DNA of 32,122 bases from Thermoanaerobaculia bacterium (GTDB lineage: Bacteria > Acidobacteriota > Thermoanaerobaculia > UBA5066 > Gp7-AA6). The position numbers were made by a program, and so were the translations under genes. Positions within the stretch are counted from its first letter, which is position 1. Each line of letters begins with the position of its first letter. Location: assembly GCA_049273755.1 (NCBI GenBank), contig JBASRI010000159.1, positions 1 through 32,122 of the forward strand, written 5' to 3'. Below the pieces are notes generated by a model that saw only the letters and a list, made by a program, of their open reading frames with translations, did not search any database and was not told the origin of the DNA. Shown one piece after another: positions 2,919 through 32,122 of this stretch.

Positions 2919-3407
2919 ATGCGACGCGTTGTCCTCGTAGTTTGGGCTGCCGCCCAAATGTCCATTCTGAGCGGACACCTCCTCGCCGGCGACAAGCTGG
3001 TAGCCGAGGATGAGCTCGCTAGAGTTAAACGCGAGTACGCCGACGTTGTCGCGCTTCAGGGCAAGTCGAAGGGCGAAATTCTAGCCATCGCCCGGATTCT
3101 TCGGGCGAATCCCGAAATGGTGATCGACCGTACGGCTGAGAGTGGCGAATACTGCTTCCAAAGCGGCCTGGGTACCATGGTTCACTTTGCTGCCGAGCCG
3201 GAGCACACGTCGGAGGATGTTCTCTACGAGTTCGACGCCTCTGGTCTGATCGCGGCAGGCCTGGACCCGGCGCGCATGAAACGGCTACCTGAACTGGGCC
3301 GAATGACACCTGGCGTGTGGTATTTCCTCCCAAAGGGGCAGCTAGACCCGCATCACGCGCACGCGATGACCGGCCCCACGATAGCAATTGCAGTCAACGT
3401 GAAGTGA
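2919..3407 (+). CDS. Hypothetical secreted protein (162 aa)
   Basis: aaggagg RBS, ATG 26 nt after attC, hydrophobic N-terminus. No family recognised. Confidence 0.65.
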   Translation: MRRVVLVVWAAAQMSILSGHLLAGDKLVAEDELARVKREYADVVALQGKSKGEILAIARILRANPEMVIDRTAESGEYCFQSGLGTMVHFAAEPEHTSEDVLYEFDASGLIAAGLDPARMKRLPELGRMTPGVWYFLPKGQLDPHHAHAMTGPTIAIAVNVK

Positions 3408-8808: not shown

Positions 8809-8872
8809 GTCTAACCCGCAGCTGCAGCGGACTCGCGCTGCGCGCTCGCCGCTGACGCGCCGCCCGTTAGTC
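8809..8872 (+). repeat. attC site (64 bp, short variant, GTCTAAC...GTTAGTC)
   Basis: gtctaacccgcagctgcagcggactcgcgctgcgcgctcgccgctgacgcgccgcccgttagtc. Confidence 0.75.
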
Positions 8873-8910
8873 GGTGCATCTGGTAGATTGACATAGGCGA
8901 CGAGGCTCCC

Positions 8911-9399
8911 ATGAAGGCGACTGCGAAGGCTACTTCAACACCTGCTGGTGCCGAGAGGCTGCTCAAAAGCTTTGTCGGCAAGTTCGACTCCAAGCACCAA
9001 ACCTTGATTCTTGCGGTGCGCAAGGCGCTACGCAAGCGGTTCCCGACTGCCAACGAGCTGGTCTACGACAATTACAACTTCTTCGTAATCGGTTACGGCG
9101 CGACGGAACGCCCGTCCGACTGCATTGTTTCGATGGCCGCGGGAGCAAACGGCGTCGGCCTGTGTTTTATCCGCGGCGCGAGTCTTCCCGATCCCAAGAA
9201 AATCCTTCTCGGTTCGGGCAACCAGACTCGCTTTATTCGTCTCGAGTCGGTTGGCGTGTTAGAGCGTGCCGAGGTTGAAGCGCTCGTTGCTGCCGCCGTT
9301 GTTCATTCTAAGATCCCGCTCCCAGCGGGCGGTCGAGGCAAGCTAATCATCCGATCGGTTTCGGCGAAGCAGCGGCCGCGGCGTCGCACGGCGAAGTGA
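8911..9399 (+). CDS. DUF1801 (YdhG-like) domain protein (162 aa)
   Basis: Pattern ...LILAVRKALRKRFP.ANELVYDNYNFFVIGYG...R.SD.IVS.AA...GV.L.F..GA.L.DP. No attC separates it from the next gene, so this is a two-gene cassette. Confidence 0.55.
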   Translation: MKATAKATSTPAGAERLLKSFVGKFDSKHQTLILAVRKALRKRFPTANELVYDNYNFFVIGYGATERPSDCIVSMAAGANGVGLCFIRGASLPDPKKILLGSGNQTRFIRLESVGVLERAEVEALVAAAVVHSKIPLPAGGRGKLIIRSVSAKQRPRRRTAK

Positions 9400-9459
9400 C
9401 GACAATTTGGGCGAGCGCCGCGGCAAACTCAGGACGACGGTAGCTCGGCCGGCGTTTGA

Positions 9460-10158
9460 GTGATGATGGTCCCTGTGGAATCGAATCTCGAGGCGCTGGC
9501 CCGCGATGTGCGCGTCTATGTCTTCCGGCAGGCGGCCGAGACAGCTCGTGTGCCTCAGCCCGCCCAGATTGCGGACGCACTCCGGCGCCCACAGACTGAA
9601 ATCCGTGAGGCGCTGAAGAACCTTGCTGCGGGCAAGGTGCTCATTCTCGCCCCGAACGACGGTAATATCTGGGCAGCGAACCCGTTTTGCGCTGTACCGT
9701 CTGGCTTTCGCGTGCTCGCGGGCGGGAAGACCTACTGGGGAATCTGCATTTGGGATGCACTGGGCATTCCGGCCGCTCTCGGGAAGGATGCGGTGATCAG
9801 CGCTCCCTGCGGCGATTGCGGCGAGCCGATGGGACTTGAAGTGCAGTATGGCAGGCTTGTGCGGAGCGAAGGTGTCATTCACTTCGCCGTTGCTGCACAC
9901 CACTGGTGGGACAACATTGGATTCACGTGAACGACGATGCTTCTCTTCCGGTCGGAAGCGCACATTGATCGGTGGTGCCTGGCTCGAGACCTCTCGCGAG
10001 GAGGGGTCCTCACCCCGGAGCAGGGATGGAGGCTCGCCCACGGTTGGTACAAAGACAAGGTGAGGCCAGACTGGCGGCGGCATAGTCTTGAGGAAACAGA
10101 GGCTCTTCTCGGAGATCTTGGGATCACGGGTCCCTTCTGGAACCTACGAGGAGAATAG
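9460..10158 (+). CDS. MerB-like (alkylmercury lyase family) protein. Two same-frame ORFs are joined by one in-frame TGA at 9928-9930: candidate selenocysteine codon, otherwise a pseudogene
   Basis: ORFs 9460-9930 and 9937-10158 share a frame. YWGICIWDALGIPAALGKDAVISAPCGDCGEP resembles MerB YAWCALDTLIFPALIG (Cys96/Asp99). GFT-TGA-TTMLLFRSEAHIDRW aligns without gaps to MerB SF-C159-CHVHFFAS. MerB sequence is recalled from memory. Confidence 0.55.
9945..9958 (+). other. Candidate SECIS-like hairpin downstream of the MerB-like TGA
   Basis: cttcc-GGTC-ggaag: 5-bp stem with GGUC tetraloop. The loop starts 19 nt after the TGA. A possible 3-bp lower stem tgc/gca (9938-9940 with 9960-9962) is separated by an internal loop. 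Confidence 0.3.
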
Positions 10159-10207
10159 GACATCGTCGTGGCCTCGCGGACGCCGCCGGCGAGGCTATGC
10201 ACCAGTC

Positions 10208-10273
10208 GCCTAACAAGGATTCGCTCGTCGGCTTCGCCTCTTCGCTCGCCGCTGAACCCGACACCCGTTAGGC
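10208..10273 (+). repeat. attC site (66 bp; left arm gcgcgtgcagcgg is missing)
   Basis: gcctaacaaggattcgctcgtcggcttcgcctcttcgctcgccgctgaacccgacacccgttaggc. Confidence 0.7.
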
Positions 10274-14422: not shown

Positions 14423-14462
14423 GCCTGACATGCGGGTGCAGCGGACCCGCCGCCCGTTAGGC
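14423..14462 (+). repeat. 40-bp mini attC (gcctgac-atgcgggtgcagcgg-acccgccgccc-gttaggc)
   Basis: Both end boxes and the left arm are retained. The about 36-nt centre and the ccgctg right arm are deleted relative to the 76-bp family. Confidence 0.5.
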
Positions 14463-21937: not shown

Positions 21938-22324
21938 ATGACGGCGCTCGCGCTCGCCGTCGGTCTTCTTGTCGCCGGGATCGGCCTGGTCGGCGTCGTG
22001 GCGCCGCAGGGTCTCCAGGCCATCGCCCAGCATGTCGACACGCCTCTCGGGATCTACGTCGCGGCGGCTGTCCGAGTGGCTTTCGGCCTCATCCTGGTCC
22101 GGGCGGCGCCCGCCTCGCGTTCACCGGGGGTCCTGCGGGTCGCCGGCGTCGTCGCAATCGTCGCGGGGCTTTCGACGCCCTTCGTCGGCGTGGACCGCGC
22201 GAGAGCGATCCTGGACTGGTGGTCCCGTCAGGGGCCCGTGCTCATGCGGCTGGGGCCCGCACTGGCGTTGGCCGTCGGAGGCTTCATCACGTATGCGGTC
22301 CGAAGCGGCCGCGGCGAGGCCTAG
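21938..22324 (+). CDS. Membrane protein (128 aa)
   Basis: 4 hydrophobic helices. Preferred over the overlapping N-terminal extension of ORF 21969-23558. Confidence 0.5.
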   Translation: MTALALAVGLLVAGIGLVGVVAPQGLQAIAQHVDTPLGIYVAAAVRVAFGLILVRAAPASRSPGVLRVAGVVAIVAGLSTPFVGVDRARAILDWWSRQGPVLMRLGPALALAVGGFITYAVRSGRGEA

Positions 22325-22397
22325 CACGACTTGCCGCCTCGCCTCGGGGGTTATCCCGACGAGTCGGGCGCCGCGTCCGTATCCCCTGAGAGGAACG

Positions 22398-23558
22398 ATG
22401 GGTTGGCGTTTTCTCGACGTTTTCCGGCGAGCTCTGGTTGAGACGGCCTCCGAGCCGGCCTCGCCGGATTACGAAGACCTGAAGCGCAAGCTGCTCTGGC
22501 GAGGCAACGGTCCGTCCCGCGGGCGGGCCCTCAGCGTCTACATGGATCAGAACAACCGGTGCAACCTCAAGTGCAAGATGTGCGGCTTCAGCGACGAGCG
22601 CGTGGCCGCTGTTCCCAAATACGACATGCCCCGCTGGCTGTTCGATTCGATCGCCGCCCAGGTGTTTCCCCGGACGAACTTCCTCATTCTCTCGATTCTG
22701 ACGGAGCCGTTCATGACGCGGGACTTTCCCGACCGATTGGAGGTCGTGAGGAAGTTCGACGTCCCCTACAGCGAGATCATCACGAACGGAACGCTCCTCG
22801 ACGAGCGAAGCGTCGGCAAGATCCTGGACGCCAGGATCACGTGCCTGACCGTCTCCATCGACGGCGGAACGAAGGAGACGTACGAGGCCATCCGGACGGG
22901 CGCCCGATTCGAGGACGTGATGGCCAACGTCCGCCTGTTTCAGGCGATGCGGAGGCAGCGGCGGGCCGCCCTGCCGCGCCTCCGGATCAATCACGTCCTC
23001 TCCGAACCGAACATCGATCACTTCGACACGTTTCTGGCCCTCGTAGACGAGATCCACCCCGAAAAGATGGGCGTGCGCACGGTGTCGCGGATGAGCAACG
23101 CGATCATTCAGGAAAGCGCGGATCCGGCGTTCTGGGCCAAGGTCGGCGTGGTACGCGAGAAGCTCGCGGCATTTTGCCGGCGGACCGGAATCGAGGATGC
23201 CGGATTCCTGCGCGACCGGCCGACCCGGATCGATCTGTTCGGGGACGGAGGAGAAAAGATGATCTGCCGCGCTCCCTGGGAGATGCTTGCCATTCACCCC
23301 AACGGAGACGTCTATCCGTGCATGGCCTGGACGCGGCCCCCGATCGGCAACTTCGCGAGGCAGTCGTTCGCGGAGATCTGGCAGGGTCGAGAGCTCGAAG
23401 CGCTGCGGCGTGAGTTTGCCGAGGTCAAACCCGGCCTGGACTGTCTGAACTGCCGGATCCGGAGAGACTCGAGCTCCGACCCCAACGACGACTTCTTCTA
23501 CGCGAAGGTCGCCAAGAAGCCGGCGCCGTCGGATTTCGGGGTTGCAGGCCGCGCCTAG
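22398..23558 (+). CDS. Radical SAM enzyme with C-terminal SPASM-like domain (386 aa)
   Basis: CNLKCKMCGF (CxxxCxxC). ITNGTLL and SIDGGTKETYE motifs. C-terminal CRAPWEMLAIHPNGDVYPC...CLNC. Confidence 0.8.
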   Translation: MGWRFLDVFRRALVETASEPASPDYEDLKRKLLWRGNGPSRGRALSVYMDQNNRCNLKCKMCGFSDERVAAVPKYDMPRWLFDSIAAQVFPRTNFLILSILTEPFMTRDFPDRLEVVRKFDVPYSEIITNGTLLDERSVGKILDARITCLTVSIDGGTKETYEAIRTGARFEDVMANVRLFQAMRRQRRAALPRLRINHVLSEPNIDHFDTFLALVDEIHPEKMGVRTVSRMSNAIIQESADPAFWAKVGVVREKLAAFCRRTGIEDAGFLRDRPTRIDLFGDGGEKMICRAPWEMLAIHPNGDVYPCMAWTRPPIGNFARQSFAEIWQGRELEALRREFAEVKPGLDCLNCRIRRDSSSDPNDDFFYAKVAKKPAPSDFGVAGRA

Positions 23559-23592
23559 TCACGCCTCTACAGAGCCGGATCGGGCGGCGGCT

Positions 23593-24210
23593 ATGATTGC
23601 GGCCATGTCCGGCCGGCAGGTCGCTCTCATACGCGGGATCAACGTCGGCCGCGCGAAGCGGGTGGCCATGGCAGACCTGCGGAAGCTCGTGGCGGACCTC
23701 GGCTATCTCGACGTATGCACGTTGCTCAACAGCGGCAACGTCGTCTTCACCGTTCCCGGAGCGGTTCGCGACGACGCGGCGGAGAGGATCGAGAGGGAGA
23801 TCGCCAAGCGGCTGGGCGTCTCGGCCCGGGTGACGACCCTGACGGCGGCGGAGCTCGCGGAGGTCGTCGGCGAGAACCCCCTCAGAAAGGTCGCGCACGA
23901 CCCGAGCCGCCTCCTGGTCGCCGTTCTCTTCGATCCGAAGGATCGAGCTCTGCTGAAACCCCTTGCGCGTCAGGGCTGGGGCCCGGAGGCCCTGGCGCTC
24001 GGGGCCCGCGTGGCTTACCTCTGGTGCCCCAACGGGATCCTCGAGAGCCGCGTCGGCGAGGCCGTCGGGCGCGCGCTGGGCGACGCCACGACGACGCGCA
24101 ACTGGAACACCATGACGAAGCTTCACGCCCTCGCCGGGGATCGCGCCCCCCGGGCGGATCGCCCGCCGCGGCGCGCAAAGCTCGCGGCTTCGGATCTCCG
24201 CAAGAAGTAG
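23593..24210 (+). CDS. DUF1697-family protein (205 aa)
   Basis: VALIRGINVGRAKRVAMADLRKLVADLGYLDVCTLLNSGNVVF is the characteristic N-terminus. Confidence 0.7.
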   Translation: MIAAMSGRQVALIRGINVGRAKRVAMADLRKLVADLGYLDVCTLLNSGNVVFTVPGAVRDDAAERIEREIAKRLGVSARVTTLTAAELAEVVGENPLRKVAHDPSRLLVAVLFDPKDRALLKPLARQGWGPEALALGARVAYLWCPNGILESRVGEAVGRALGDATTTRNWNTMTKLHALAGDRAPRADRPPRRAKLAASDLRKK

Positions 24211-24577
24211 ACCGGCCAGGAAGCGCGGGCCGTCCGCGCGCTCGTCCAGGGGGCAGGGTCGGCGGCCGCGCAGCAGACCGGGGCCGCAAGAAGCCGACCT
24301 CCGAGACCTGGCAGTCTTCCAAAGACGGCTTCAACGTCCTCGCCGTGTTGACCGAGGCCCGGATGCGTTCATGAAGCAGTTGTTGACGCCGCCCCAGACG
24401 CGGAGCATTCTGGTGCAGAAGGGAAGGATCCGCGCCGCCTACGGTGTGCAGCTCAGCGTGGTCAACCTGGGCATTCGGATCGAGCCGGAAGATCCTCCGG
24501 GTCTACCGGCTCCGCGCGGTCGTGCACGATCGCAACGCCGGGATCGATCTGCCGCTCGAGCGCCCGAAGCTCGCGTC

Positions 24578-24853
24578 ATGACCTTCCCCGACGAGTACGG
24601 CGAGGCGGATCTGGTTCAGTTGGCGGAAGTCGTGCGTGACTGGTCTCACGATCCGTCCGGTTCCTATCTCGTCGAGGCCCGATGCCGGCCCACGGGTCGA
24701 ATCTTCATCAGCGGATACCATCCCAAAGAGCTGGACATCACCCTGCTGAGGATGGTGCATTGCCCGCACTGCAAGGATTGGCACCGGCTCGTCCTCGCGG
24801 TCGAGCCGATCATTCGAGAGCCGATTCGGTTGATTCGATCGTCAGGAGCCTGA
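24578..24853 (+). CDS. Hypothetical protein (91 aa; the ORF opens at 24371)
   Basis: The portion from ATG 24578 has protein-like composition (MTFPDEYGEADLVQLAEVV...HCPHCKDWH). The upstream 69 codons are Arg/Pro-rich. Confidence 0.35.
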   Translation: MTFPDEYGEADLVQLAEVVRDWSHDPSGSYLVEARCRPTGRIFISGYHPKELDITLLRMVHCPHCKDWHRLVLAVEPIIREPIRLIRSSGA

Positions 24854-24916
24854 TGAAGGCTCGCGGTCGATCTGAAGCCGTGCATGTCGTAGACGCGACG
24901 CTCGCCCTCCGCAGCC

Positions 24917-25318
24917 ATGGCCGTGTGGCGTAGGCGAGCGCGGGAGCTCTTCCCCGAGCTGAGCCGGGAGCTCGCTGTGGACGCGTACAGCGTGCACCAG
25001 CTCTTCTTCGACCTCGTGCCCCGGGTCGAGCAGGCTCACGCCGACGGAAACGAGGAGTTCTTGAAGCGCGCCTACGGCTTCGCGGGCTGGTGTGGTTCCC
25101 AGAATGGCAAGGACCTCTGGAACGCCGCGGGCGTCGCATTCTTCGAGCATGCGTTCGATCGCTGGAACCAGCGGCACCTCGTCGTTCCGTGGCTGTCGCC
25201 GCAGGTGATCGCGGATTCGTGGCCGCTCTGGGAGTCCCGGTTGAATCGGGTCCAGCTCTCGGAGCTTCGCGAGCTCTTCGAAAAGCGCCGGGAAAGAAAG
25301 TATGCCCAGTGCGTCTAG
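24917..25318 (+). CDS. Hypothetical protein (133 aa)
   Basis: Helical, Trp-rich, balanced composition. The antisense ORFs are Arg/Pro-rich shadows. Confidence 0.55.
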   Translation: MAVWRRRARELFPELSRELAVDAYSVHQLFFDLVPRVEQAHADGNEEFLKRAYGFAGWCGSQNGKDLWNAAGVAFFEHAFDRWNQRHLVVPWLSPQVIADSWPLWESRLNRVQLSELRELFEKRRERKYAQCV

Positions 25319-25467
25319 CGCACGCGTCGAGCGGGGTTTTGGGTCCGGCGAGGGGACGCCTGAGGCTGCATCTGCTGGCCACACTCGGATAGGCTTTCGT
25401 CCGGTCGCGTGCCTCTTGCTCCGGCTTTCGGTGCGGCGGGTGGGACCTGCCTGATAGGGAGGTCGTC

Positions 25468-25944
25468 ATGACGAAGACGCGGCGGTCCGTTCTCAAGGCG
25501 GTCGTTCATGGGTGCACGGGCCTGGCTGCGCTGGCGGGGTCGTCCGCAGCCGCGGCGCAGGAGCTCGCCTCCGGGGGCGCGCCGCAGAAGTTTCTGCTCG
25601 TGGGCCTGTGCGGCTCCGAGAATCCGACCCGGGCCAACTTTCCGTTCGTCTGGGCCTCGGCGTTGAAGTCGGCTGGCCACGAGGTCCGGATCGAGATCGC
25701 CGGCGACGCGACCGTGCTCATCCGAACGCCCGTCTCCGACTCCGTGACGCCGGTGGGCTGGCCGCCGTTCCGCGAGGCCCTCGCGCGCGTCGTCGAGCAC
25801 AAGATCCCGATCTATGTTTGAAAGGCCTGCGCGACCGCCCGTGGGGTGGTGGAAGCCGATCTCGCCAACAAGAACGCGCAGTTCACGAACCCGCAGCTGA
25901 CGGCCCAGACGATGGCGTGGGCGAGCAAGATCCTGGTCGTTTAG
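25468..25944 (+). CDS. Tat-signal DsrE/DsrF-like protein with in-frame TGA at 25819-25821 (candidate selenocysteine in a U-x-x-C motif; 158 codons if read through)
   Basis: TRRSVLK twin-arginine signal. FLLVGLCGSENP...KIPIYV-TGA-KACATARGVVEADL....TAQTMAWASKILVV-TAG in the same frame. DsrE-like proteins carry a Cys at this position, as I recall it. Confidence 0.6.
25834..25850 (+). other. Candidate SECIS-like hairpin downstream of the DsrE-like TGA
   Basis: accgccc-gtg-gggtggt: 7 pairs including one G-U. The loop starts 19 nt after the TGA. Possible lower stem ggc/gcc (25824-25826 with 25855-25857). Confidence 0.3.
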
Positions 25945-25989
25945 TCCTCGGGAGGTTCGCGCGCCGAGGGGTTGAGAGGAGGCCGGATC

Positions 25990-26382
25990 ATGAGCAGCCC
26001 TGTTGCGGGATTCGGACTGAGACAGATCGGCCAGATCGCCGTCCCCGTCGCCGACATCGATCGAGCCGTCGGCTTCTATCGGGACACGCTGGGCATGCGC
26101 TTCCTGTTTCAGGCCCCCCCGGGACTGGGGTTCTTCGATTGCTCGGGAGTGCGGCTGATGCTCGATGCTCCGGCCAAGGCGCAAGGCGGGAGCGGCGGCT
26201 CCGTCATCTACTACGAGGTTCCGGATCTTCAGGCGGCCTTCGAGGCCCTCTCCGCCCGCGGCGTCGTCTTCGAGGCGAAGCCTCACTTGATCGCTAAGCT
26301 GCCCGACCACGAGCTGTGGATGGCGTTCTTCCGCGATCCGGACGACAACCTCCTGGCGCTCATGAGCGAGGTCCGTCCGTGA
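25990..26382 (+). CDS. VOC-family (glyoxalase fold) protein (130 aa)
   Basis: gagaggagg RBS. IGQIAVPVADIDRAVGFYRDTLGM ... AFFRDPDDNLLALM. Confidence 0.75.
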   Translation: MSSPVAGFGLRQIGQIAVPVADIDRAVGFYRDTLGMRFLFQAPPGLGFFDCSGVRLMLDAPAKAQGGSGGSVIYYEVPDLQAAFEALSARGVVFEAKPHLIAKLPDHELWMAFFRDPDDNLLALMSEVRP

Positions 26383-26529
26383 GCCCAGGCGACGCCAAAC
26401 GGCAGCTCGCGGTCTTCCAAAGGCCGCTCGAAGACGTTCGTGCGGGCGGTCGCGGCGAAGCGGCTTCCCCGAAGACCCCAGAACCGCCGCGCATGACTTC
26501 TTCTATGGAACTCCAATGAGGGGGTCGTC

Positions 26530-27255
26530 ATGAAACTGCCGGCAGTGCAGGGCGTGATTCGCCGACGAATCCTGGTGAACTTCCGCGTTCGGCCCGACGT
26601 GATGCAGGCCCAGATCCCGGCGCGCTTCACGCCGAAGCTGCACGCGGGCAACGCCATCGCCGGAATCTGCCTCATCCGGCTGGAGGAAATCCGGCCGCGG
26701 TCGCTGCCATCGTTCGTGGGCCTGGCGAGCGAGAACGCTGCCCACCGCGTGGCGGTGCGATGGAAGGGCGACTCCGGGGAGGAAAAGGAAGGCGTGTTCA
26801 TTCCGAGACGGGACACGAACTCGACGATGAACCGACTCGCGGGCGGCCGGCTCTTTCCGGGGGAACACCACCTGGCCGCGTTCGAGGTCGACTGTTCCGA
26901 CGAGCGGATCGCCCTGGAGATGGAGTCGTCCGACGGCGAGGTCGCGGTCAGAGTTCGCGGGACGCCAGCCGCGAACCTTCCGGCCACGTCCTGCTTTTCG
27001 AGCCTCGCCGAGGCGTCCGCCTTCTTCGAGCCCGGGAGCCTGGGCTACTCCACGACCGCGGAGCCGGGCCGGCTCGACGGCGTGGCGTTGAAGACCAGGA
27101 GCTGGAAGGTCGAGCCCCTCGAGGTCGAGGAAGTCTTCTCGAGCTACTTCTCGGACGAGACGCGGTTTCCGAAGGGCAGCGTCGCCTTCGACTGCGCGCT
27201 CCTGATGCGCAACATCGAGCACGAGTGGCAAGGCACCGGTGACCTCTACGTTTGA
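26530..27255 (+). CDS. DUF2071-like protein (241 aa)
   Basis: N-terminal RRRILVNFRVRPDVMQAQIP..F.P.....AIAGICLIRLEEIRP...P....L.SENAAHRVAV resembles DUF2071, from memory. Confidence 0.55.
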   Translation: MKLPAVQGVIRRRILVNFRVRPDVMQAQIPARFTPKLHAGNAIAGICLIRLEEIRPRSLPSFVGLASENAAHRVAVRWKGDSGEEKEGVFIPRRDTNSTMNRLAGGRLFPGEHHLAAFEVDCSDERIALEMESSDGEVAVRVRGTPAANLPATSCFSSLAEASAFFEPGSLGYSTTAEPGRLDGVALKTRSWKVEPLEVEEVFSSYFSDETRFPKGSVAFDCALLMRNIEHEWQGTGDLYV

Positions 27256-27332
27256 AACGAGACCACGCGCGGAGTGAGACGTCGCGAGGCCGGACCTGGC
27301 TGTATCCTCTGCCGTGCGACGGGAGGTGTGAC

Positions 27333-27785
27333 TTGCTCGCTTCCGCCCTGATGCTCGCGGCCGTGCTCTCGGCCCCGATGACGCCGACCCCGCAGGCCGC
27401 CGCGCCGTTGCCGAGCGTGGCGCTGCCGCCGGAGCTCGCCCGCGTGCTGACGGACTACGAGACGGCCTGGGGCAATCGCGACGCCTCCGGCCTCGCGGGC
27501 CTCTTCGCCGAAGACGGGTTCGTGCTCTCCGGCGGGAAGCCGCCGATCCGAGGACGCGCCGCGATCGAAGACGCGTACAAGGGAAGCGGCGGCCCCTTGT
27601 TCCTCCGGGCCCTGGCCTTCGCCACCGAAGGCGACGTCGGCTACATCATCGGAGGCTACTCGCACGCGAAGGGCGCGCCGGACGACGGGAAGTTTACGCT
27701 GACGTTGAAGAAGGGTTCCGGCGGGCGTTGGCGGATCATGTCCGACATGGACAACGGCAACCGTCCGCCGCGCCGGGAGCCCTGA
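27333..27785 (+). CDS. Secreted DUF4440/SnoaL-like NTF2-fold protein (150 aa)
   Basis: TTG after ggagg RBS. Signal peptide. YETAWGNRDASGLAGLFAEDGFVL..G.PPIRGRAAIE...; GGRWRIMSDMDN. Confidence 0.65.
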   Translation: MLASALMLAAVLSAPMTPTPQAAAPLPSVALPPELARVLTDYETAWGNRDASGLAGLFAEDGFVLSGGKPPIRGRAAIEDAYKGSGGPLFLRALAFATEGDVGYIIGGYSHAKGAPDDGKFTLTLKKGSGGRWRIMSDMDNGNRPPRREP

Positions 27786-27812
27786 GCGGGGCCTGAGGAA
27801 GAGGAGGCTGGC

Positions 27813-28286
27813 GTGGTGTCGAGCAAAGCCGCCACGGTGAAGGAGTATCTCGATGGGCTTCCGGAGGACCGCCGCGATGTCGTCTCCGCGGTCCGGAGGA
27901 CGATCCGCGAGAACCTTCCTCCCGGCTACCGCGAGGCGATGCAGTGGGGGATGATCACGTACTCCGTCCCGCTGGCCCGCTTTCCCGACACCTACAACGG
28001 CCAGCCTCTGTGCTACGTCGCGGTGGCGGCGCAGAAGAACCACTTCGCCGTCTACATGTCGGGCCCCTACCAGAATCCGGAAGAGCTTTCGCGGCTCAAG
28101 GAGGGCTTCCGAAAAGTAGGCAAGAAGCTCGACATGGGCAAGTCCTGCGTCCGCTTCCGCAAGCTCGAGGACCTGCCGCTCGACGTGATCGGCGAGTCCG
28201 TCGCCCGGGTGCCGGTCGAGAAGTTCCTCGCCTGCTACGAGCAGGTCAAGCAGGGCACGAAACCCCGTACGAAGAGAAAGGCGTAG
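27813..28286 (+). CDS. DUF1801 (YdhG-like) domain protein (157 aa)
   Basis: GTG after gaggagg. TVKEYLDGLPEDRRDVVSAVRRTIRENLP.GYREAMQWGMITY ... KSCVRFRKLEDLPLDVI. Confidence 0.7.
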   Translation: MVSSKAATVKEYLDGLPEDRRDVVSAVRRTIRENLPPGYREAMQWGMITYSVPLARFPDTYNGQPLCYVAVAAQKNHFAVYMSGPYQNPEELSRLKEGFRKVGKKLDMGKSCVRFRKLEDLPLDVIGESVARVPVEKFLACYEQVKQGTKPRTKRKA

Positions 28287-28343
28287 CGCCCTTCGGGGCC
28301 TCGAGACTTCGGGTTGGCCCGTTCCTTGCGGGCGAGAAGCGGA

Positions 28344-29807
28344 ATGCGTCTCGCCGTACGCATCGCGGTGGCGGGGATCGCCCTCGCGGCGCTCCTGCTG
28401 GCCGGATACGCGGCGACGGCGAAGTGGCTGCTGTCCGGCCCGAAGCTGCGGTCCCTGATCAACAGCGATCCTGAATCCTCCCTGCTCGACTGGGACGAAG
28501 CCTGGTCGATCTGGCCGGGGCGCATCCGCGTCCGGAACCTGCGGATCCGCGGCAGCGACCGCAACGTGCAGTACATCATCGTCCTCAAGGAGGCGCGGGT
28601 CCGCTACTCGGCGCTTGCGCTCGCCTCTCGGCGGTTCCGCGTCACCGCCGTCGACGGCGCGGGGCTCTCGTTCCGGCTCCGGCAGAAGCTGACCCGGGAG
28701 GAGCTCCGCACGACCGCGGTCGATCTGCTCCCACCCGTGCCGGGGTTCGACGATCCGCCGCTGCGCGAGGAGAAGCCGCCGGCGCCGCCCGTCGAAGGGA
28801 ATCCCTGGACGCTCGTCATCCGCGGCATCGCGATCGAGCGGCTGGAAGAGATCTGGGTCGATGCCTGGCGGTACGAGGGCGCCGCATCCGTCCGCGGGGA
28901 GTTCCTGCTGCGCTCGGGCCAGCGGGCGAGCGTGGGTCCTGCATCCATCACGTTCCCCGGCGGGCTCCTGAGGCTCGGGAAGGCGGCAGCGCTCACGAAA
29001 GTCGACGGCAAGCTGGAGGCGACGTTCGACGAGTGGGATCCGCGCGTGGTCCAGGGCAATGCGGTCTGGAAGGAGGTCACTGGCCAGGCGCGCGTCGCGG
29101 GGCCCACGGAAAGCATCGCGTTCCTGAACCACTTTCTGCGCGCGTCGAAGGAGCCGCGCTTGTCCGGAGGGGCGGGAACTTTGTCGGCCGAAGGCTCGAT
29201 CGCGCACGGCCTCGCCCGCGGCGACGTGGTCCTGGAGGCGCGCAAGGCGCGGATGGAGCGCGCCGGGCGGACGATCGTGGGCGACACGGCCGCGCGGCTG
29301 CACGTCCCGGAGGGGAATCTCGAGACGGGCCGGCTCGTGATCTCGGGAAGCCGGCTGGAGCTCACCGACGCCCGCGTCACCGGGAGCGAGGCGGCGCCGG
29401 GCTGGTGGGGCAAGTTCCTCGCGCGGTGGGGAGTCCTTGATCGGGGCCTGAGCGCGCGCGTGGAGCTCGAGTGCCGCGACGCGCGGCCGCTCTTCTTCGC
29501 CTTCGGCGTCCAGCTGCCGAAGTGGGCGCAGGAGATTCTCAAGCTCGAAGGGCTGCGCGGGTCGGCCCGCGTGACGCTGGCCCCGTCGCTCACCGTGGTC
29601 CGGAATCTCGAGGTGAAGGGCGGAAAGTTCGTCATCCTCGGCGACTACGAAGCGCGAAAAGGAATCCCAAGCGGCGCCTTCCTGATCGACACCGGCTCTC
29701 TGAACGTCGCCGTGGAGATCGGTGGCGGCATGCCGCACCTCCGGCTGATCAACGCGAAGCCGTGGTTCGAGGAGAGGAGGGCGGCGCAAGCGCGGCCCGC
29801 GGAGTGA
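28344..29807 (+). CDS. Large membrane-anchored hypothetical protein (about 487 aa; possibly AsmA-like)
   Basis: N-terminal TM MRLAVRIAVAGIALAALLLAGYAA. Long beta-rich body. The 859-aa antisense ORF is an Arg-rich shadow. Confidence 0.6.
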   Translation: MRLAVRIAVAGIALAALLLAGYAATAKWLLSGPKLRSLINSDPESSLLDWDEAWSIWPGRIRVRNLRIRGSDRNVQYIIVLKEARVRYSALALASRRFRVTAVDGAGLSFRLRQKLTREELRTTAVDLLPPVPGFDDPPLREEKPPAPPVEGNPWTLVIRGIAIERLEEIWVDAWRYEGAASVRGEFLLRSGQRASVGPASITFPGGLLRLGKAAALTKVDGKLEATFDEWDPRVVQGNAVWKEVTGQARVAGPTESIAFLNHFLRASKEPRLSGGAGTLSAEGSIAHGLARGDVVLEARKARMERAGRTIVGDTAARLHVPEGNLETGRLVISGSRLELTDARVTGSEAAPGWWGKFLARWGVLDRGLSARVELECRDARPLFFAFGVQLPKWAQEILKLEGLRGSARVTLAPSLTVVRNLEVKGGKFVILGDYEARKGIPSGAFLIDTGSLNVAVEIGGGMPHLRLINAKPWFEERRAAQARPAE

Positions 29808-29835
29808 CAGGCGGCGCAGAGTCATCCCGCGCCCT

Positions 29836-30502: not shown

Positions 30503-32122
30503 ATGCACGCTCGAATCCTGTCGGTCGCGGTGGCCGGCGCCGCGCTCGCCGCATTCTCTCCGGCCCAGCAGGACCCGCTCGAGTTCGCGAGACTCAAGGA
30601 CTTCACGGCGCACCGCTCTTCATCGAGCAATGAGGACCCCGCCTCCAACGACGACAGCAAGCACCCGATCCCCGGCGAGGAGATCACGCTCGCCGATCTC
30701 GAGGGCCCGGGGGTCGTGACCCACATCTGGCTGACGATCGCGGCCAGCGAGTACGCCTGGCCGCGCCTGTTTCGACTGCGCGCGTACTACGACGGAAACG
30801 CCGAGCCCTCGGTCGATGCCCCGGTCGGAGACTTCTTCGCCGTGGGACACGGATTCGAGCGGCCCGTGAAGTCCGAGATGGTCCGCGCGAGCTCCGACGG
30901 CCGCGCGCGCAACGCCTACTGGCCGATGCCGTTCGCCAAGTCCTGCCGCATCACGCTGACGAACGAGGGCCGGCGCCGCGCGGACCACGTCTACTACCAC
31001 GTGGACTGGGAGAAGCGCGCCGCGCTTCCGCCGGGGACGCTCTACTTCCACGCGCGGTACAAGCAGGAGCTGCCGGCGCCGGCGGCGAAGCGCTCGTACA
31101 CGTTCCTCGACGTCCAGGGGCGCGGCTTCTACGCCGGCACCGTGCTGTCGGTGATTCAACCGTCCGCCGGCTGGTTCGGGGAGGGCGACGAGCGCTTCTA
31201 CATCGACGGCGCGACGGCGCCCTCGATCGTGGGGACCGGCTCGGAAGACTATTTCAACGACGCGTGGGGTCTCCACGTCGTCGACGGCCCATACTACGGC
31301 GTCACGGTGGCCGACGGCACCGGCCTGGGCTCCCGCATGACGGCCTATCGCTGGCACCTCCGGGACCCGATCCCGTTCAACACGTCGCTCCGCTTCGAGC
31401 TCGAGCACCTCGGTTGGACGTACAACCAGGACGGGTCCCTCAAGTCGGCTTTCGGCGAGCGCGACGACCTGATGTCGTCCGTCTCGTTCTGGTACCAGGA
31501 GGGTGCGGCGATGGGGCTGCCCCCGGTGCCCTACGGCTCGGCGCGTCTGCCGCAAGGCAACGCGCAGCAGATCGAGGTCGAGAACGCGATCGGCTCGATG
31601 CGCGCGGAGAAGGGAAAGGCGTCGCTGTTCAAGGACCTCTTCTGGTCCAAGGACGTCGTCGTCTTCGCCGGCGAGGGTCCGGACGCGAGGCTCGAGATGC
31701 CCTTCGACGTCGACGAGGCGGGGGACTACGAGCTCTACACGCAGGTCGCGCAGGGCTCGGACTACGGGATCTACACTGTCCTCCTCGACGGGAAGAAGGC
31801 CGAGGCGCCCGTCCTCGAGCACGAGCCGGGCGCCGACGTGCGGCCGCAGCTTTCGTTCGACGGCTACGCCTACGAGACCTACGTGGGCATGGACTACCAG
31901 GTGGGCTGGCCGCGCCTGACGAAGGGGCGGCACACGCTGACGTACGTCTGCCTCGGCAAGAACGCGGCCTCCACGGGTTACGTGCTCGGTGTGGACAACA
32001 TCGTCCTGGCCCGCGTCGGGAAAGAGGGCTGGGCGAAGGCGGCCGCCGTGCGCCCGCCGAACGTGCCGTCGGACCTGCAGGGATTGACGCGGGCGCTCTC
32101 GGATCCGGACGCGGTCGTGCGG
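30503..32122 (+). CDS. DUF2961 / GH172-like secreted protein, 3'-partial (540 codons, runs off the window)
   Basis: Not in the ORF track because there is no stop in the window. ggagg RBS plus ATG 30503. Signal peptide. THIWLTI...LRAYYDG...PSVDAPVGDFF..GHG...YWPMPF...HVDWE...FHARY...GEGDERFYIDG...GTGSEDYFNDAWG. Confidence 0.75.
   Translation, partial: MHARILSVAVAGAALAAFSPAQQDPLEFARLKDFTAHRSSSSNEDPASNDDSKHPIPGEEITLADLEGPGVVTHIWLTIAASEYAWPRLFRLRAYYDGNAEPSVDAPVGDFFAVGHGFERPVKSEMVRASSDGRARNAYWPMPFAKSCRITLTNEGRRRADHVYYHVDWEKRAALPPGTLYFHARYKQELPAPAAKRSYTFLDVQGRGFYAGTVLSVIQPSAGWFGEGDERFYIDGATAPSIVGTGSEDYFNDAWGLHVVDGPYYGVTVADGTGLGSRMTAYRWHLRDPIPFNTSLRFELEHLGWTYNQDGSLKSAFGERDDLMSSVSFWYQEGAAMGLPPVPYGSARLPQGNAQQIEVENAIGSMRAEKGKASLFKDLFWSKDVVVFAGEGPDARLEMPFDVDEAGDYELYTQVAQGSDYGIYTVLLDGKKAEAPVLEHEPGADVRPQLSFDGYAYETYVGMDYQVGWPRLTKGRHTLTYVCLGKNAASTGYVLGVDNIVLARVGKEGWAKAAAVRPPNVPSDLQGLTRALSDPDAVVR

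Follow-up and report, generated by a model that had tools for sequence, protein, structure and literature searches.

The window analyzed here, a stretch of 32,122 nucleotides of contig JBASRI010000159.1 (GenBank assembly GCA_049273755.1) from a Thermoanaerobaculia bacterium of the phylum Acidobacteriota, carries on its plus strand a MerB-like gene (9460-10158) whose reading frame contains a UGA codon at 9928-9930. The basic observation, a single MerB-fold gene interrupted by a UGA, is confirmed. Comparison with its relatives makes it very likely that the UGA is decoded as selenocysteine (Sec) in this MerB-like family. We also propose, with confidence only a little better than even, that the family is an undescribed and abundant group of selenoproteins, which would form a second, independent branch of MerB-fold proteins with Sec, may cleave bonds between carbon and metal(loid)s (methylmercury, for example) in soils without involving a mer operon, and could be moved by integrons.

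Two open reading frames (ORFs), 9460-9930 and 9937-10158, were initially described as lying in the same frame and being separated only by a TGA. They are indeed co-framed, with TGA 9928-9930 and two sense codons between them. After the TGA the frame reads ACG ACG ATG and continues to a TAG at 10156-10158. When the UGA is read through, the product has approximately 232 residues, and the proposed Sec is residue 157. The start of the gene is ambiguous (GTG 9460, ATG 9463, ATG 9466 or GTG 9475); the last of these was chosen in the NCBI record, MFY9550310.1, which is truncated and contains 151 residues. The C-terminal 75 codons (9931-10155) encode the end of the MerB domain and a conserved tail (…FWNLR), and would be translated only if the UGA is decoded. 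Elsewhere in the window TGA is an ordinary stop codon, as had been assumed, since coding-like ORFs end in TGA at 414-416 and 3405-3407.

When the read-through product is compared with the Pfam MerB model (PF03243), the match extends across the UGA and scores 94.3 bits for a cut-off of 27. The match places residues 77-197 on profile positions 2-125 of 126, and each half of the product alone matches only its own part of the model. The original prediction had recognized a MerB-like C-x-x-D motif and placed the TGA on the catalytic Cys159, and both assignments stand. The window sequence GICIWDALG aligns with WC96ALD99 of MerB; read directly, codon 9745-9747 encodes Cys and codon 9754-9756 encodes Asp, so that the Cys96-Ile-Trp-Asp99 codons occupy 9745-9756. 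In a direct alignment with MerB2 (PDB 5c17), the TGA falls without gaps on the Cys of GGTCKQIHYF. Moreover, a family profile built from 70 members was aligned to E. coli MerB (E = 8.6e-14), with its nCawD segment on WC96ALD99 and its ftC-stillF segment on SFC159C160HVHFF; therefore the TGA column is the Cys159 column. The same profile aligned to MerB2 at 1.3e-24, with C96, D99 and C159 all in register. The position occupied by Cys159 in the MerB superfamily is thus a UGA in the window, and it would be filled only if the UGA is read as Sec, a Cys analogue. The family has further conserved residues, namely Cys77 and a C117-G-D-C120 motif.

The fold was modeled on P0004, a full-length relative that has Cys at the TGA column and is 59% identical to the window protein. 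With a 70-sequence alignment, AlphaFold gave a model with a predicted local distance difference test score (pLDDT) of 95.4 and a predicted template modeling score (pTM) of 0.91; an earlier model based on a shallow, mostly truncated alignment reached a pLDDT of 62.6 and was discarded. Foldseek comparison of the P0004 model with the PDB returned MerB2 and MerB as the sole significant matches (E = 1.7e-12 to 1.5e-6), with template modeling scores of up to 0.74: 0.67/0.74 at E = 1.7e-12, and 0.57-0.74 for the matches with E = 1.7e-12 to 1e-8. The next matches were winged-helix regulators, which covered the N-terminal 60 residues only. Profile matches, the Cys96/Asp99 pair and the fold predicted for P0004 together confirm the window protein as a member of the MerB superfamily.

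The TGA is conserved across relatives of the gene. A protein search recovered 1225 relatives (clusters at 90% identity), and 116 of the best 120, whose endings were inspected, end exactly at …WWDNIGFT; gene callers truncate the family at the UGA everywhere examined. We fetched 63 genome loci (L001-L063) from species-representative genomes, all of them metagenome-assembled genomes (MAGs), belonging to Acidobacteriota/Terriglobia, Thermoanaerobaculia, Vicinamibacterales, Gemmatimonadota, Chloroflexota, Actinomycetota, Armatimonadota and Myxococcota. The column is covered in 59 of these loci, and in each of them it is TGA, never TAA or TAG. A metagenome scan seeded with P0004 added 76 TGA forms and two TGC forms (L065 and L108). 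The two TGC forms are nested within TGA relatives with which they share 82-92% identity. Counting the window, the 59 genome loci and the 76 metagenome loci, 136 sequences from at least five phyla have TGA at this column. Downstream of the TGA, the frame stays open for approximately 74 conserved codons (STMLLFRxEEH[IV]DRWC…FWNLR) in the genome loci, with the exception of L020, which keeps the TGA and is frameshifted later; in L030 and L035 the contig ends before the frame is complete. The length and frame of the window gene are kept in its homologues. Scattered stops and frameshifts, which the original prediction had named as the mark of a decaying gene, were therefore not seen: L020 is the only frameshifted case, and is itself a likely pseudogene.

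The TGA column is also that of a conserved Cys, as had been anticipated. Besides Cys159 of MerB itself, Cys is found in the close full-length relatives P0004 and P0005, and as TGC in L065 and L108. An exhaustive search at the level of 50%-identity cluster representatives gave 1701 relatives; among the best 150 of these, in which the column was read, 72 end at the TGA column and 63 have Cys there. In the UGA-truncated representatives that align around the C-x-x-D motif, Cys96 is present in all and Asp99 in all except P0259, which has Glu. A C-x-x-C variant of the active site was also observed: Cys replaces Asp at the Asp99 column in 31 of the 150 representatives (P0121-P0270), all of them full-length and of the Cys type, and in no UGA-truncated representative. 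The residue preceding the UGA is Thr, replaced by Ala or Ser in a few genome loci and by Asn in two metagenome loci, and the residue following it is never Cys in the family loci. One further metagenome locus, L064 (744-1430), has TCA (Ser) at the Sec column and keeps the hairpin intact; the TCA is due either to a recent mutation or to faulty sequencing. Altogether, the family is large and its genes stand alone; its main hosts are soil Acidobacteriota and Gemmatimonadota, with further copies in Chloroflexota, Actinomycetota, Armatimonadota and Myxococcota. One locus, L033, is labeled Bifidobacteriaceae; with 71% identity to Gemmatimonadota and Acidobacteriota copies, it looks like a binning or labeling problem.

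A stem-loop resembling a selenocysteine insertion sequence (SECIS) is predicted immediately downstream of the UGA, at 9935-9967 on the plus strand. Its lower stem pairs 9935-9939 with 9963-9967, a C-G pair joins 9943 and 9960, and its upper stem pairs 9945-9949 with 9954-9958 around a GGUC tetraloop (9950-9953). The hairpin cuucc-GGUC-ggaag pointed out at the outset is therefore present at 9945-9958, 14 nt past the UGA, and its loop starts after 19 intervening nt. The E. coli fdhF SECIS to which it was likened had been given exactly, with a 100% match inside fdhF in 5419 of 5426 genomes, and its GGUC loop does start after 18 intervening nt. Counted from the U of the UGA, the loop occupies nt 22-25 in fdhF and nt 23-26 in the window. 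Both elements are thus stem-loops inside the coding sequence directly 3' of the UGA; however, the window element has another stem sequence and no evident bulged U like U17 of fdhF. Across the family, the upper stem starts 12-14 nt after the UGA and carries a G-rich apical loop. In approximately two thirds of the family GGUC is replaced by a loop of 6 nt, such as CGGGAC or CGUGAC, and loop positions 23 and 24 show a conserved G, or G/U. Bacterial SECIS elements as described by Zhang and Gladyshev in 2005 reportedly have a G in the apical loop and a loop approximately 16-37 nt from the UGA. The family stem-loop agrees with this in both spacing and loop G.

The hairpin was analyzed in an alignment of 107 distinct sequences, in which in-register pairing was compared with pairing after sliding the partners. 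For the stem formed by nt 14-22 with nt 27-35, 84.7% of cells were paired, and at most 64.7% when the partners were slid. For the 13-pair stem formed by nt 8-21 with nt 28-40, the corresponding values were 89.0% and at most 50.8%. Compensated changes were found at pair 16-33 (CG 85, AU 2, GC 1, GU 1), pair 17-32 (UA 96, GC 1) and pair 22-27 (CG 36, UA 1, GC 1), and pairs 19-30 and 21-28 show wobble changes. The stronger signal for the putative hairpin is the constraint on synonymous sites, judged against codon usage in the same genes. Indeed, the Arg codon in the loop (nt 22-24) is CGG or CGU in 126 of 126 cases, whereas these two account for 43% of CGN codons in the rest of the genes, the Glu28 codon is GAA in 110 of 129 (30% elsewhere), and the Leu16 codon is CUC in 106 of 106 (47% elsewhere). 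CGC appears in the loop codon only in L065 and L108, the two Cys forms. The family-consensus hairpin folds at -18.2 kcal/mol with z = -3.4. The case for the predicted hairpin is thus a comparative one, and does not depend on the fold of a single sequence.

The window was also scanned for further coding-like ORFs interrupted by TGA. This revealed a DsrE-like gene at 25468-25944 on the plus strand, with a twin-arginine-type signal, a TGA at 25819-25821 (in YV-U-KAC-ATARG) and a hairpin at approximately 25832-25852. The Pfam DsrE model spans its UGA; NCBI annotates the gene as a 117-residue hypothetical protein (WAU32_04225). In 119 of 120 DsrE-like homologues the annotated protein ends at the TGA column (…KIP[IV][FY]V), and one full-length relative, P0389, has Cys at this column. 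Four independent loci, from Thermoanaerobaculia, Acidobacteriaceae, Blastocatellia and a further lineage that shares the window gene order, have the TGA followed by 40 conserved codons and a conserved hairpin. This hairpin, GACCGCC-CGU-GGGUGGUC, is common to the loci, with a compensatory change from C-G to U-A in L151. The gene order DUF1697, small ORF, DsrE-like UGA gene, DUF2071 (window 23542-27255) is shared with L145 and L146, two of these loci. Because these flanking genes are shared, the right-hand part of the window with the DsrE-like gene can be considered conserved chromosomal backbone. A DsrE-like selenoprotein family is listed in PMC1794560, and Acidobacteria, Chloroflexi and Actinobacteria include documented Sec decoders (PMC1794560, Table 2). 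Our literature search on the Sec trait in Gemmatimonadota or Thermoanaerobaculia found nothing usable. Since two independent genes on one contig appear to be UGA-recoded, a Sec-decoding host is likely, and we take these genes to suggest that the host decodes Sec.

The MerB-like gene itself lies in a different setting. attC sites were detected with a filter combining core sites and folding, and with an nhmmer profile built from the attC sites of the window. Between 496 and 12424, nhmmer found at least 15 near-identical attC sites of 66-79 nt in a single orientation (GCCTAAC…GTTAGGC), with canonical RYYYAAC…GTTRRRY cores and an imperfect dyad symmetry inside. Further along, weaker sites were observed at 14423 and 16260. 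The sites form an integron array of the chromosomal type, and the DsrE-like gene lies outside its detectable extent. The MerB-like gene is approximately 11 attC sites into the visible array, in a cassette (8873-10273) bounded on its 5' side by a shorter attC (8810-8870, plus strand, nhmmer E = 1.5e-10, cores GTCTAAC…GTTAGTC) and closed by an attC at 10208-10273 (plus strand, GCCTAAC…GTTAGGC). The cassette holds two genes with no attC between them, a DUF1801 gene (8911-9399, plus strand, PF08818, 31.4 bits) and the MerB-like gene, a pairing seen in no other family locus. As expected for integron cassettes, the gene lies between attC sites with canonical cores and its neighbors are small and unrelated: the array cassettes carry genes for an M55 peptidase, GGACT, DUF1801, DinB, RibD_C and others. 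It differs from a standard cassette by its two genes and by the lack of an identified integrase or attI in the window. Indeed, the 20 larger window ORFs scanned had no integrase domain (intI may lie outside the window, and the array may start upstream of it), and neither attI nor a promoter for the array was identified in the window. The description of the gene as an integron cassette gene therefore applies to the window copy, and does not extend to the family, which is mostly not cassette-borne; attC-like sites within approximately 3 kb of the family gene were found only for L002 and L017. An integron cassette with a selenoprotein gene is not known to have been described before, although no exhaustive search was made.

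This setting raises the question of whether the gene might be silent cargo, that is, a genuine selenoprotein gene elsewhere that has landed here in a host without Sec decoding or in a cassette that is not expressed. The depth of the gene in the array and the lack of an identified promoter or integrase are in line with such a fate. However, the DsrE-like UGA gene lies outside the array, with its DUF1697 and DUF2071 neighbors kept in L145 and L146, and because of this conserved chromosomal context the host lineage appears to maintain a selenoprotein gene of its own. Moreover, the MerB-like UGA gene is not part of a cassette in the other Thermoanaerobaculia MAGs that carry it, L003, L015, L021, L034 and L037. 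We consider silent cargo unlikely.

Read-through with another residue was also considered, either by near-cognate insertion of Trp, Cys or Arg promoted by the hairpin, or through a genetic code with UGA reassigned to an amino acid. The nature of the inserted residue cannot be read from sequence alone, which leaves some room for this explanation. The terminal stops of the same MerB-like genes are TGA in 39 cases, TAG in 7 and TAA in 7 (53 in total); a reassigned code is excluded because no other codon is used as often as TGA for genuine stops in these genomes, the ends of this gene included. The invariance of the internal TGA in genes whose terminal stops vary also indicates that it does not act as an ordinary stop. 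Against a non-Sec insertion, the recoded column is that of the catalytic, metal-binding Cys and interchanges with TGC, and the stem-loop has the spacing and the G-containing apical loop of a bacterial SECIS. In addition, the second gene on the contig, the DsrE-like one, pairs U-x-x-C with C-x-x-C homologues, and there is a precedent for Sec at the same position of the MerB fold in SaoL (10.1101/2022.07.06.499078). Insertion of a residue other than Sec is thus very improbable, and decoding as Sec is the better explanation.

The co-existence of two ORFs might also result from a naturally split gene, with a 156-residue product ending at the UGA and a C-terminal part re-initiated at AUG 9937, the two pieces possibly assembling. 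An ATG is indeed found two codons past the TGA in the window and in most relatives, and gene callers annotate the 5' part alone. The pattern of substitutions tells otherwise. Mean pairwise differences at codon positions 1, 2 and 3 are 0.236, 0.164 and 0.505 over the 66 codons after the UGA, and 0.258, 0.248 and 0.52 over the preceding 60 codons. Selection at the amino-acid level acts on the two codons that separate the UGA from the AUG: the first encodes Ser, by AGC or AGT in 47 loci and by TCG in 5, and the second encodes Thr, for which all four synonymous codons are used. No Shine-Dalgarno-like motif was detected upstream of the AUG in any of 60 loci. The AUG at +3 is replaced by a Thr, Leu or Ile codon in the UGA-bearing L067-L070, L122, L131, L133, L135, L141 and L143. 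The internal stop is always TGA, yet 26% of terminal stops are TAG or TAA, and a split product would be without an equivalent of the catalytic Cys159. Periodicity, Ser and Thr codon switching, the lack of a Shine-Dalgarno motif and replacement of the AUG together exclude a gene that stops and restarts; we regard this explanation as highly improbable, and the comparative data show that the codons downstream of the UGA are translated.

Finally, a nonsense mutation or assembly error in a former Cys codon has next to no probability: TGA is one base away from TGC and TGT, cassette arrays accumulate decaying genes, and L020 and L064 depart from the common pattern, but the same TGA recurs in 136 sequences that were assembled independently and represent several phyla, the frame downstream of it is open and under purifying selection, and the closest subclade relatives (L003, L091 and L092) have an identical arrangement.

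Several points weigh against decoding as Sec, or against the function proposed for the protein. No tRNA gene is present in the 32-kb window, and no tRNA-Sec was found near the 32 homologue loci scanned. Every homologue genome among the 63 species-representative genomes is a MAG, with no cultured isolate. The hairpin of the window is weak, at -9.0 kcal/mol with z = -0.5, and contains a U·C mismatch, which is explained in the window subclade (window, L003, L091 and L092) by the replacement of Glu31 by Ala. Its fold does not stand out from that of shuffled sequence (z = -0.5 to +1.5); single-sequence z-scores are uninformative here, since the genuine fdhF SECIS reaches only z = -0.9 in the same shuffling test. 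No Rfam SECIS match was obtained, either in the whole window at gathering thresholds or in 9850-10050 at E <= 10. Classical covariation is modest because few stem pairs vary, and it is mostly the sequence itself that is constrained; the nominal probabilities for codon constraint are overstated, as the sequences were treated as independent and their phylogeny was ignored. Cassettes deep in integron arrays are often poorly expressed. Neither mer genes nor conserved neighbors hint at a substrate: merR, merT, merP and merA domains were found neither among the 20 window ORFs scanned nor as conserved features across 60 loci, and neighborhood clustering of these loci revealed no conserved neighbor of the MerB-like gene, the top clusters being its own shadow frames. 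Lastly, a Hg-Se bond is expected to be very strong, and product release in a true organomercurial lyase cycle would then be questionable.

Taking decoding as Sec as the preferred reading, we propose that the gene produces a single MerB-fold protein of approximately 232 residues with an active site formed by Cys96, Asp99 and Sec157 in place of Cys96, Asp99 and Cys159 of MerB. The stem-loop inside the coding sequence would direct recoding, with a lower stem starting approximately 5 nt, an upper stem 12-14 nt and a loop 18-19 nt after the UGA. This geometry is that of a bacterial SECIS, the element bound by SelB carrying Sec-tRNA(Sec), and the host would have to possess this machinery for the inserted residue to be Sec. 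From the conserved Cys/Asp/Sec triad we infer that the protein may be an organometal lyase that cleaves carbon-metal bonds. If it works like MerB, the leaving carbon would be protonated by Asp99, with Cys96 and Sec157 holding the metal. In this genome, a chromosomal integron has captured one copy of the gene in the same cassette as the DUF1801 gene.

The original prediction did not place this family among described selenoproteins, and in this respect it has to be corrected. SaoL, a MerB-like "selenocysteine-assisted organometallic lyase", has a C-U motif in which Sec162 aligns with Cys159 of MerB, and belongs to a nine-gene SAO locus of strict anaerobes such as Clostridioides, Syntrophobacter and Brachyspira (Haft and Gwadz 2022, NCBIfam NF040728, bioRxiv 10.1101/2022.07.06.499078). 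It is included in two reviews (PMC9312934 and PMC13188914) and is the sole MerB entry in a 2026 inventory of prokaryotic selenoproteins. SaoL and the present family share the MerB fold, Cys96 and Asp99, and, as proposed here, Sec at the equivalent of Cys159. They differ in several respects. The window protein scores 36.3 bits with the SaoL model NF040728, whose cut-off is 140, and matches it over residues 7-137 only. The motif is T-U-[S/T] in this family (T-U-T in the window) instead of C-U, no SAO neighborhood was found across the family loci, and the hosts are soil Acidobacteriota, Gemmatimonadota and Chloroflexota MAGs, not strict anaerobes. Identity with SaoL was therefore rejected on the basis of the profile cut-off, the motif, the gene context and the hosts.

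MerB from E. coli plasmid R831b (PDB 3F0O, 3F0P and 1S6L) and MerB2 (5C17) share with the window protein the fold, the Pfam family, Cys96/Asp99, an aligned third catalytic position and an N-terminal winged-helix-like region. In contrast, identity is approximately 20%, the NCBIfam models NF009710 and NF033555 give 32.4 bits for a cut-off of 193 and 25.9 bits for a cut-off of 200, and the family has UGA at position 159, no Cys160, and the additional Cys77 and C117-G-D-C120. Nor were merA, merR, merT and merP found near the family gene. With scores far under the equivalog cut-offs and no mer linkage, a bona fide MerB (EC 4.99.1.2) was rejected. A literature description of this MerB-like Sec family was not found, in a search whose coverage of the literature was incomplete. 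On the best reading, what is new here is a Sec-bearing branch of the MerB fold that is distinct from SaoL, Sec in the MerB fold itself being already known.

Other genes of the window were noted in passing. Adjoining the DUF1697 gene, 21969-23558 (plus strand) encodes a 529-residue radical SAM protein with a SPASM domain, which may be a peptide- or cofactor-maturation enzyme. Three long ORFs, at 27246-29825 (minus strand), 28314-29807 (plus strand) and 30620-31933 (minus strand), have no Pfam match. The 859-residue minus-strand ORF is probably a shadow frame, because the overlapping plus-strand ORFs have a G+C content at third codon positions of 0.89-0.90.

If the proposed decoding is true, hundreds to thousands of database entries named "organomercurial lyase" of about 155 residues would represent the front two thirds of a selenoenzyme, and a family profile spanning the UGA could correct gene callers and the models of the NCBI annotation pipeline PGAP. 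The cassette context would mean that a selenoprotein gene with its SECIS inside the coding sequence is portable by integrons, and is useful only where the host decodes Sec. That Sec was recruited repeatedly to the Cys159 position, in SaoL as well as in this family, would bear on the chemistry of the site. With Sec at a metal-binding position of the MerB fold and no mer operon close by, the family would also raise the question of whether methylmercury or other organometal(loid)s are demethylated in soils independently of mer, or whether the protein acts instead as a high-affinity metal trap. Finally, the use of Sec would extend into abundant soil Acidobacteriota and Gemmatimonadota, whose selenoproteomes are barely charted, and the DsrE-like gene points in the same direction.

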